Notes under the pieces: model-generated | Databases searched by the model: none | What the model was told of the DNA's origin: nothing | What the model saw: the letters and a program-made list of their open reading frames with translations, nothing else | UHGV virus genome: UHGV-0360087 | Length of the DNA: 10,606 nucleotides | Direction: 5' to 3' (one strand) | Source of the DNA: a virus | Program-made: the position numbers and the translations under genes | Shown: one piece after another, positions 9,133 through 9,972 of the stretch | Position numbering within the stretch: the stretch's first letter is position 1 | Layout: each line of letters opens with the position of its first letter

Positions 9133-9363
9133 ATGAACCCAGCTATCAAAACAGCGATCAATATCGTTGGTTCACAAAAGAAACTGGGCGCTGCTTGCGA
9201 AGTTTCACAGCAGGCCGTCTATAAGTGGCTTCACAACAAAGCAAAGGTATCCCCTGAACATGTCGGCAGCATTGTTACGGCTACTGGTGGAGTAGTGAAG
9301 GCATACCAGATTCGCCCGGATCTTCCGAAGTTGTTTCCACACACCGAAAAGAACGCAGCTTAA
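9133..9363 (+). CDS. Cro-like / YdaS-family HTH regulator, 76 aa
   Basis: Divergent from the repressor across OR. VGSQKKLGAACEVSQQAVYKWL...IRPDLPKLF matches the YdaS/Cro-type HTH pattern. Confidence 0.8.
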   Translation: MNPAIKTAINIVGSQKKLGAACEVSQQAVYKWLHNKAKVSPEHVGSIVTATGGVVKAYQIRPDLPKLFPHTEKNAA

Positions 9364-9375
9364 ATTTCCATTTCA

Positions 9376-9384
9376 CGCTCTTTA
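9376..9384 (+). promoter_or_regulatory. boxA-like element (possible nutR)
   Basis: CGCTCTTTA lies 13 nt downstream of the cro stop, matching the lambdoid boxA consensus CGCTCTT(T)A. No convincing GC-stem boxB hairpin follows. Confidence 0.3.
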
Positions 9385-9432
9385 ACAATAAGCAATCAAC
9401 TTAACAGTCAATTCAAACTAAAGGAGTCAATT

Positions 9433-9972
9433 ATGCAACCACTTCCATACCAACAGACTAGCGGATTTAGCCCGACTGCGGTGATAAATCGTTCTCAAAC
9501 AAAACAGGTGCTAGGCCACGAAAAAATCCGTGATGCCGTCCGCGCCTGGTCGGCTGTAGATAATCAGGATGTCGTTGCCACACTCATTGTGAATGAGTAT
9601 CGGGAGCAGGGCGGCGGCACCATCGATTTCCCTGATGATGTCAGCCGTGCACGCCAGAAGCTGTTCCGCTTCCTCGATAACAAATTCGATTCTGAAAAAT
9701 ACCGAAATAACGTGCGTGAACTGACCCCGGCAATTCTGGCGGTACTACCGCTGGAATATCGCGGTTACCTGGTTGAGCAGGATAGCTTCATGGCTAGGTT
9801 GGCTGAAATGGAAAAGGAACTCAGTGAGGCAAAACAGGCTGTCATTCTCAACGCACCACGCCACCAGAAACTGAAGGAAATTAGTGAAGGTATTGTGTCG
9901 ATGTTTCGTGTGGACCCAGATCTGGCTGGTCCATTGATGGCGATGGTTACTACCATGCTGGGGGCGATATGA
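9433..9972 (+). CDS. YdaT-like protein in the cII position (CII-analogue regulator), 179 aa
   Basis: RBS AAGGAG lies 6 nt upstream. The motifs EYREQGGG and LTPAILAVLPLEYR resemble Rac YdaT as I recall it. It sits between cro and the replication gene. Confidence 0.65.
   Translation: MQPLPYQQTSGFSPTAVINRSQTKQVLGHEKIRDAVRAWSAVDNQDVVATLIVNEYREQGGGTIDFPDDVSRARQKLFRFLDNKFDSEKYRNNVRELTPAILAVLPLEYRGYLVEQDSFMARLAEMEKELSEAKQAVILNAPRHQKLKEISEGIVSMFRVDPDLAGPLMAMVTTMLGAI

Follow-up and report, generated by a model that had tools for sequence, protein, structure and literature searches.

A YdaS/YdaT-family gene pair in the cro and cII positions of a lambdoid immunity region, and a candidate CII-dependent promoter within a phi80-type cII gene

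Gene content of the immunity region

The stretch of DNA analysed here (the window) comprises 10,606 nucleotides (nt) of the virus genome UHGV-0360087, and our interest lay in two adjacent rightward genes, which encode a YdaS-like and a YdaT-like protein. Pairs of this kind are often annotated as toxin–antitoxin-like, but the original prediction, made from the sequence alone, had placed this one exactly in the cro and cII slots, between the right operator region (OR) and the replication gene, and had proposed a regulatory role on that ground. The placement holds, as a divergent CI-type repressor gene and operators are found on the left of the pair and a lambda-O-type gene on its right:

9133–9363, plus strand: Cro-like regulator of the YdaS family (76 amino acids), first gene of the rightward operon; PF15943, PHROG 35.
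9433–9972, plus strand: phi80-type CII of the YdaT family (179 amino acids); PF06254, PHROG 163.
8339–9028, minus strand: CI-type prophage repressor (HTH_3 and Peptidase_S24, 229 amino acids), with Pfam and PHROG 4 matches from residue 23 of the open reading frame (ORF).
9040–9131, no strand assigned: OR, with 14-base-pair (bp) operator-like palindromes ACAACC-N3-GTTTT/GTTGT at 9040–9053, 9087–9100 and 9118–9131, and an inverted half-site pair at 9070–9094.
9077–9105, plus strand: candidate promoter PR, TTGACT (9077–9082), 17 nt and TAATCT (9100–9105), which is our own reading and falls below the threshold of the promoter scan.
10059–10606, plus strand, running off the window: replication initiator of the lambda O/phi80 gene 15 type (Phage_rep_O); PF04492 at 116.9 bits, PHROG 2365/277.

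The order of repressor (minus strand), OR, cro-like gene, CII-like gene and replication gene was compared in seven further phage loci. It is the same in six of them, namely phi80, mEp237, HK225, CobraSix, ST16-OXA48phi5.1 and PHB10, and in the seventh, ST974-OXA48phi18.2, the cro-like gene is not annotated.

Family assignment of the two proteins

Profile searches matched both proteins to the proposed families above the curated cutoffs. The 76-residue protein scores 62.2 bits against Pfam PF15943 YdaS_toxin (gathering cutoff 30), accompanied by weaker, sub-threshold Pfam matches to P22_Cro (22.8 bits) and HTH_3, and it matches PHROG 35, 'transcriptional repressor', at 1.5e-27. Its best matches in the PDB are Cro proteins, with 3BD1 ('Cro protein') aligned over residues 4–66 at an E value of 7.3e-4, and its identity to YdaS of the Rac prophage is 30%. 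The experimentally named Cro of phi80 (gene 30) itself falls just below the YdaS_toxin cutoff (29.8 against 30).

The 179-residue protein is encoded by an ORF (9433–9972) that is preceded at a distance of 7 nt by a strong Shine-Dalgarno sequence, AAGGAG. It scores 103.5 bits against PF06254 YdaT_toxin (cutoff 21) over positions 1–90 of the 92 in the model, and it covers all 168 positions of PHROG 163, 'CII-like transcriptional activator', at 1.3e-66. As a single sequence it matches the PDB entries 8BT1 and 3C4R at E values of about 8e-4 (7.9e-4 for 8BT1), while a profile built from 30 sequences reaches 8BT1 at 8.6e-11 over residues 22–106. Arg79 is invariant in all 30 of these sequences and aligns with R60 of the CP-933P protein and R57 of the Rac protein, the single DNA-contact arginine that the family conserves, singled out by both structural papers (PMC9986795, PMC11879457). 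A long helix is suggested at residues 116–139, where E129, A133 and A136 align with the helix region of Rac YdaT. The protein can be laid out as follows:

Residues 1 to about 25: N-terminal extension.
Residues about 26–106: helix-turn-helix (HTH) DNA-binding domain, including the conserved Arg79.
Residues about 116–140: long helix.
Residues about 141–179: conserved C-terminal extension.

By homology, this protein would be a tetrameric HTH activator. No toxin-type domain was detected in either protein in the Pfam, PHROG and PDB searches, in which HTH and regulator families alone were matched. A lambda-CII family was absent among the Pfam matches of the 179-residue protein at E values up to 1, and lambda was not among the CII-named phage proteins matched with it by tblastn, which were those of phi80, mEp237, HK225 and HK639. 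Judged by these searches, the protein is an analogue of lambda CII and not a homologue. The families, the gene order and the orientation fit a Cro/CII-type pair rather than a toxin–antitoxin module, in agreement with the regulatory role that had been proposed, and very probably the two genes encode the Cro-like and phi80-type CII-like lysis/lysogeny regulators in the immunity switch of a lambdoid E. coli prophage.

The repressor and its operators

The repressor gene probably starts at the ATG at 9028, and the corresponding 690-nt form is called by RefSeq PGAP in an identical locus. The longest repressor ORF, which extends to 9094 (251 amino acids) and is used in the PhiR34_1 record, would cover the OR operators and leave 38 bp before cro. 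A minus-strand promoter (PRM), TTGATA-17-TACATT, was predicted by the promoter scan from 9063 to 9035 with a start at about 9028, and the repressor mRNA may be leaderless from this promoter, as are those of lambda cI and CP-933P paaR2. After cI, a terminator-like hairpin with a T-run is present on the minus strand at about 8227–8190. A search for the 14-bp palindrome returned 9 matches against 1.8 expected, a number that was reached in 0 of 200 shuffles, and the copies outside OR cluster at 8025–8062, about 1 kb to its left, in what is presumably OL. We infer that these palindromes are the operators for Cro and CI.

Comparison with known systems

The reasoning from genetic context is not new. 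Jobling (2018) put forward the same argument, that YdaS and YdaT are equivalents of Cro and CII and not toxins, and credited Casjens (2003) with it (PMC5917428). For the pair of prophage CP-933P this was shown experimentally by Jurenas (2021), who found that its YdaT is not toxic and pointed out its homology to the CII of phi80 (PMC8630535). The structure 8BT1 combines a POU-like HTH domain with a tetramerising helix, and in the same study a TTGATT-N6-AATCAA site was footprinted at the ydaS/ydaT junction of CP-933P (Prolic-Kalinsek, 2023; PMC9986795). In Rac, the footprint covers ATGATT-N6-AATCAA over the ydaT start codon, a leftward promoter toward racR is activated 29-fold by YdaT, the Rac and CP-933P YdaT proteins, which are 30% identical, recognise each other's sites, and the toxicity of overexpressed Rac YdaT was attributed to activation of the host gene rcsA (Wons, 2025; PMC11879457). 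The RefSeq name of the K-12 protein is now 'DNA binding transcriptional activator'. Given the published argument and the experiments on homologues, the interpretation offered by the original prediction is supported and was already known.

Phage phi80 (gene 30 Cro, cII, M3 RNA and gene 15; JX871397, X13065) resembles the window in the leftward cI, OR, the cro-like gene, cII, the slot for a small leftward RNA and an O-like gene with iterons, and likewise in a TGAT-N8-nTCA box with TAnnnT at the same codons and in convergent int (plus strand) and xis (minus strand) genes. However, the Cro proteins of the two share 12 of 26 residues in one short segment and the operators differ, so that the immunity type of phi80 is different from that of the window. 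Moreover, the window was found to have neither the N gene of phi80 nor the hairpin of its cro–cII spacer, and the sequences in the M3 slot align poorly.

RacR–YdaS–YdaT of the Rac prophage in E. coli K-12 shares the Pfam families and the gene order with the window; the DNA-binding domain of its YdaT is 35% identical and keeps the key arginine, the 5' end of ydaT carries a footprinted box, and a leftward promoter that faces the repressor gene is activated by YdaT. Yet Rac YdaT, at 140 residues, has neither the N-terminal extension nor the 40 conserved residues at the C-terminus, its box overlaps the ATG (at −7) instead of codons 17–22 and is about 190 bp away from the activated promoter, no S24 match is reported for RacR, and the replication genes are ydaU and ydaV. 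PaaR2–YdaS–YdaT of CP-933P (E. coli O157:H7; 8BT1, 3C4R) also has a homologous DNA-binding domain and is an experimentally supported Cro/CII analogue pair, but its YdaT has 141 residues, a paaA2–parE2 toxin–antitoxin insert is found in the repressor operon, and the box is placed at the end of ydaS in a prophage that is defective. The likeness to Cro, CII, PRE and oop of lambda consists in a second rightward gene for an HTH activator, by homology a tetramer, with a target promoter (predicted in the window) at its own 5' end that reads through cro to cI; beyond it come the gene of a small leftward RNA, a candidate in the window, and an O gene that contains iterons. In contrast, lambda CII reads direct TTGC-N6-TTGC repeats and the YdaT family an inverted repeat (PMC9986795), and neither a cIII nor an N gene is evident in the window.

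Length of the protein and the phi80 subfamily

With 140 residues in Rac YdaT, the window's protein of 179 residues is indeed longer than its Rac counterpart, as stated in the original prediction. In tblastn searches of phage genomes its full-length identity to phi80 cII (180 amino acids, JX871397) is 65.6%, and the CII proteins of mEp237, HK225, HK639 and several Klebsiella and Enterobacter phages are 48–72% identical. We assembled a set of 64 distinct homologous genes, including 56 genome loci from many genera of the Enterobacteriaceae, whose products are 39–74% identical to the window's protein. All 64 are 177–187 residues long, and 179 residues is therefore the norm for the phi80 subfamily. 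Aligned with Rac YdaT, the window's protein carries about 25 extra N-terminal residues, which are conserved, and its C-terminal tail exceeds that of Rac YdaT by about 23 residues and shows no sequence relationship to it. The phi80-type proteins score 98.7–103.5 bits against PF06254, compared with 44.7 bits for Rac YdaT itself. In the early phi80 record X13065, cII was called from an internal start (132 amino acids); the long form is supported because the N-terminus is conserved across the family.

The C-terminal 40 or so residues (APRHQKLKEISEGIVSMFRVDPDLAGPLMAMVTTMLGAI, 9853–9969 in the window, residues about 141–179) are strongly conserved in all phi80-type CII proteins, end in a hydrophobic tail and have no counterpart in Rac YdaT. 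It is a guess on our part that this extension acts as a stability or degradation signal like the C-terminus of lambda CII.

A conserved box and a candidate leftward promoter within cII

Two elements were found within the 5' part of the cII gene:

9481–9498, no strand assigned: candidate CII (YdaT) box GTGATAAATCGTTCTCAA, with TGAT at 9482–9485 and TCA at 9495–9497, inside codons 17–22 of cII.
9460–9455, minus strand: predicted −10 hexamer TAGTCT of a putative leftward PRE-like promoter, with conserved TAnnnT.

The box was located by scanning for the core TGAT-N8-ATCA with at most one mismatch. The window has a match at exactly +49 counted from the cII ATG, as does each homologue for which the start of the gene was recovered, and the same scan recovered the box of Rac at −7 as a positive control. 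With one mismatch in the eight-base core, GTGATAAATCGTTCTCAA resembles the footprinted inverted repeat (A/T)TGATT-N6-AATCAA and is a candidate site. The full repeat TTGATT-N6-AATCAA, allowing up to three mismatches, gave 10 matches in the whole window against 6.7 expected, a result that is uninformative alone; the box is meaningful because of its position-specific conservation across the homologues. The TGAT (+50 to +53) and the T and C at +63 and +64 are invariant in 64 of 64 sequences, and +54 and +55 are occupied by A or T only. The peptides encoded over the box vary, including INRAQ, IKRNQ, IYQNRR, IFENQ, ISNYQ and IFPCHQ.

Conservation is also evident at synonymous sites. In the codon alignment of the 64 genes, in which the mean third-position information is 0.66 bit, the third base is invariant in 5 of 177 codons: the start codon, a Trp codon, and codons 9, 17 and 21. 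Codon 17 contributes the G of TGA in this way and codon 21 the T of TCA, and the probability for the two third positions of the box core, which was defined a priori, to fall among the 3 invariant of 175 was calculated by hand as (3/175)x(2/174), or about 2e-4. The remaining one, in codon 9, is position +27, which together with +28 (T at +27, A at +28) and the A at +23 is invariant in all 64 sequences and gives TAnnnT on the minus strand; the codon itself encodes six different amino acids across the homologues. TAnnnT represents the three most informative positions of the sigma-70 −10 hexamer, and a G is found at −14 in 58 of the 64 sequences. The hexamer is 21 nt from the box core, and the predicted start at about 9448 (+16) would put the centre of the box at about −41.5.

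The composite pattern of box, 20–22 nt and TAnnnT occurs once each in the window, in complete PhiR34_1 and in complete phi80, always in this place. Since the DNA 5' of the cII ATG is not conserved and the Cro proteins of the window and phi80 are barely similar, it is the CII protein, not the immunity type, that the motif accompanies. From these alignments we infer a leftward CII-dependent promoter with class-II geometry in the N-terminal coding extension of cII, and by analogy with the footprinted homologues the 179-residue protein would bind the box at 9481–9498. Going further, and with somewhat less than even confidence, we speculate that the N-terminal extension of about 25 residues exists largely because its DNA houses this promoter (box at −41.5, −10 at codons 8–10), and that CII and the promoter form a self-contained cassette that is free to recombine with cro/cI regions of unrelated immunity type.

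The first 22 nt of cII (ATGCAnTCACTTnCnTATCAACA, 9433–9454, codons 1–7) are unusually conserved at the DNA level as well, including the third positions +9, +12 and +18. This could reflect either the stretch first transcribed from the predicted leftward promoter or a constraint from translation initiation. Outside the gene, TTGATTCAAATTAACCAC at 9105–9122 has two mismatches to the published YdaT box and is located between the presumed −10 of PR and the Shine-Dalgarno sequence of cro, a placement that recalls the binding of Rac YdaT over PydaST. Further perfect or near-perfect TGATW-N6-WATCA boxes are present in phi80 (27126–27141, 38719–38734 and 41916–41931) and in PhiR34_1 (12986–13001); one of them lies in the 3' end of the Q-like gene of phi80 and two are intergenic. 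The spacer between cro and cII, which corresponds to the location of the box in Rac and CP-933P, was considered and rejected as the CII box site because it is not conserved with phi80; it contains only a direct repeat, AGTCAATT, present twice (9406 and 9425), and one AATCAA.

Proposed mechanism

If the window's genes work as their lambda counterparts do, the 76-residue Cro would be made first, from PR, and would bind the ACAACC-type operators in OR, reducing the synthesis of the repressor and later the activity of PR itself. The 179-residue CII would be produced from the same rightward transcript after infection and would bind the inverted repeat TGATA-N6-TCTCA(A) at 9481–9498, within its own first 22 codons. 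Bound CII would then activate the leftward promoter with its −10 at 9460–9455 and its start at about 9448, and the resulting transcript would run antisense through cro into cI, so that lysogeny could be established as it is from PRE of lambda.

Several observations weigh against this scheme. In the window the right half-site is degenerate (TCTCAA instead of AATCAA), TAGTCT matches three of the six consensus positions of a −10 hexamer, and the consensus promoter scan called no minus-strand promoter at the predicted site. The geometry of the box also differs in the homologues, as in Rac it is upstream of the promoter by about 190 bp (PMC11879457), and in CP-933P it is downstream of the proposed one (PMC9986795). 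No CII box was found upstream of int, either at 2750–2923 in the window or in the pI region of phi80, and a function like that of PI in lambda is thus unsupported. The single-sequence AlphaFold2 model of the 179-residue protein has a mean confidence score (pLDDT) of 38.9 and is unusable, for which reason the fold and the oligomeric state rest on homology. Finally, the experiments behind the mechanism come from homologues at 30–35% identity, none of them of the phi80 type.

Alternative explanations

The alternative to which we give most weight, although we consider it unlikely, is that both proteins are regulators but that the box and TAnnnT do not constitute an establishment promoter, the box being instead an autoregulatory operator acting on transcription or translation, or an anchor for a DNA loop to the second site, TTGATTCAAATTAACCAC, near PR. 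A YdaT tetramer has two faces that bind DNA, and the Rac protein binds the intergenic region between the repressor gene and ydaS, overlapping PydaST (PMC11879457, PMC9986795); the window has its box-like site with two mismatches between the −10 of PR and the cro Shine-Dalgarno sequence, and the strong box of CP-933P lies downstream of the proposed PRE (PMC9986795). Against this alternative stand the invariant TA...T at the three most informative −10 positions, the 21-nt spacing that gives a centre at −41.5 and the G at −14 in 58 of 64 sequences, and no comparable conserved element is found to the right of the box. TTGATTCAAATTAACCAC, for its part, is not conserved across the loci, and the window shows no excess over chance of box-like matches at this stringency.

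It is also conceivable, albeit very improbable in our view, that the CII-like protein acts mainly on host genes and that its role in the phage switch is vestigial. Rac YdaT activates host rcsA with strong phenotypes (Wons, 2025; PMC11879457), and some 28% of the complete E. coli genomes carry the module, probably in defective prophages in many cases. Against this, a near-identical module is carried by many sequenced phage genomes and the cis elements inside the gene are themselves under strong purifying selection across genera, and a function in the phage cycle is argued for on these two grounds.

Least credible of all is a genuine type II toxin–antitoxin module in which YdaT would be the toxin and YdaS the antitoxin, or vice versa, serving prophage stabilisation or growth arrest independently of the lysogeny decision: it has in its favour the Pfam names 'Bacterial toxin YdaS/YdaT', the RefSeq name 'toxin YdaT domain-containing protein' and the reported toxicity of overexpressed Rac YdaS/YdaT, but both proteins are HTH DNA binders without a toxin-type domain, the genes lie within a complete cI/OR/cro/cII/O immunity and replication region and not in a stand-alone autoregulated bicistron, published tests of homologues were negative, with CP-933P YdaT not toxic (PMC5917428, PMC8630535, PMC9986795), the toxicity of Rac YdaT is explained by activation of host rcsA, and the close homologue in phi80 is named cII.

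Distribution and annotation

The 2.3-kb region is 99.4% identical to that of Escherichia phage PhiR34_1, which is annotated with cI, Cro, cII and replication protein O and has K-12 MG1655 as its listed host, and it is 97–99% identical to several other sequenced phage genomes. At the protein level the module is 94–99% identical in PhiR34_1, PhiR5_1, IdasGreatGrand, 4A7, 1W/3W and Perceval. At least 80% of the query is covered in 1497 of 5426 complete E. coli genomes (about 28%), where the RefSeq names are 'transcriptional regulator' and 'toxin YdaT domain-containing protein'. The word 'toxin' survives in such names as a holdover in the databases, and a 'toxin YdaT' label on about 28% of complete E. 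coli genomes can mislead surveys of toxin–antitoxin systems.

The module as such is an ordinary and very widespread lambdoid immunity module that was already known, and only the CII-dependent promoter predicted inside the gene in the phi80 subfamily may be new. It is not annotated in phi80 JX871397, nor did we find it described in the literature, of which the 1988 phi80 papers of Ogawa and colleagues were not covered. The box and the −10 conserved at synonymous sites provide a hypothesis for the establishment of lysogeny in phi80-type phages and suggest why regulator and promoter would move together between heteroimmune phages. Neither of these two points alters how lambdoid switches are currently understood.

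Flanking features

Three further features were recorded around the gene pair:

9376–9388, plus strand: boxA-like CGCTCTTTAACAA in the cro–cII spacer, read from the sequence.
9979–10049, minus strand: candidate small antisense RNA similar to oop/M3, with the promoter TTGAAT-17-CATAAT from 10084 to 10056, a 15-bp hairpin from 10022 to 9988 and a U-rich tail.
10405–10522, within the replication gene: five iterons TTACCYGAATCAGGTAA.

The resemblance of CGCTCTTTAACAA is presumably to the rrn/lambda boxA consensus. Neither a boxB/nutR hairpin nor a terminator was found in the spacer (9364–9432), whose fold is not better than those of shuffled sequences (z = −0.76), and no N-like ORF was found between the presumed OL/PL (8025–8077) and the kil-like gene (7537–7947).

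The hairpin of the candidate small RNA is followed by GCCAUUUCU, and its fold has an energy of −26.2 kcal/mol (z = −3.2). The −10 of its promoter overlaps the ATG of the O gene at 10059, and the RNA terminates short of the cII stop codon; the same holds in phi80, where an M3 RNA ('homolog of lambda oop') is annotated in the same slot. An Rfam scan returned tRNA only and no oop-type family.

The start of the replication gene is most likely 10059. Alternative in-frame ATGs are present at 9969, which overlaps the cII stop codon and is called by PGAP/GenBank, and at 9984. In favour of 10059, the PHROG matches begin there, a GGGAGG Shine-Dalgarno sequence is present, and the context of the start is conserved with phi80 gene 15.

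Farther to the left, a tRNA-Arg(CCT) gene (2675–2749, minus strand) is situated between two tyrosine integrase genes (1356–2549, minus strand, and 2924–4114, plus strand). A convergent excisionase-like gene (4098–4340, minus strand) comes after the second integrase in the int (plus)/xis (minus) arrangement of phi80, and a tail-fibre-type gene (45–665) lies immediately to the left of the first; the arrangement suggests that two mobile elements adjoin a single tRNA locus.

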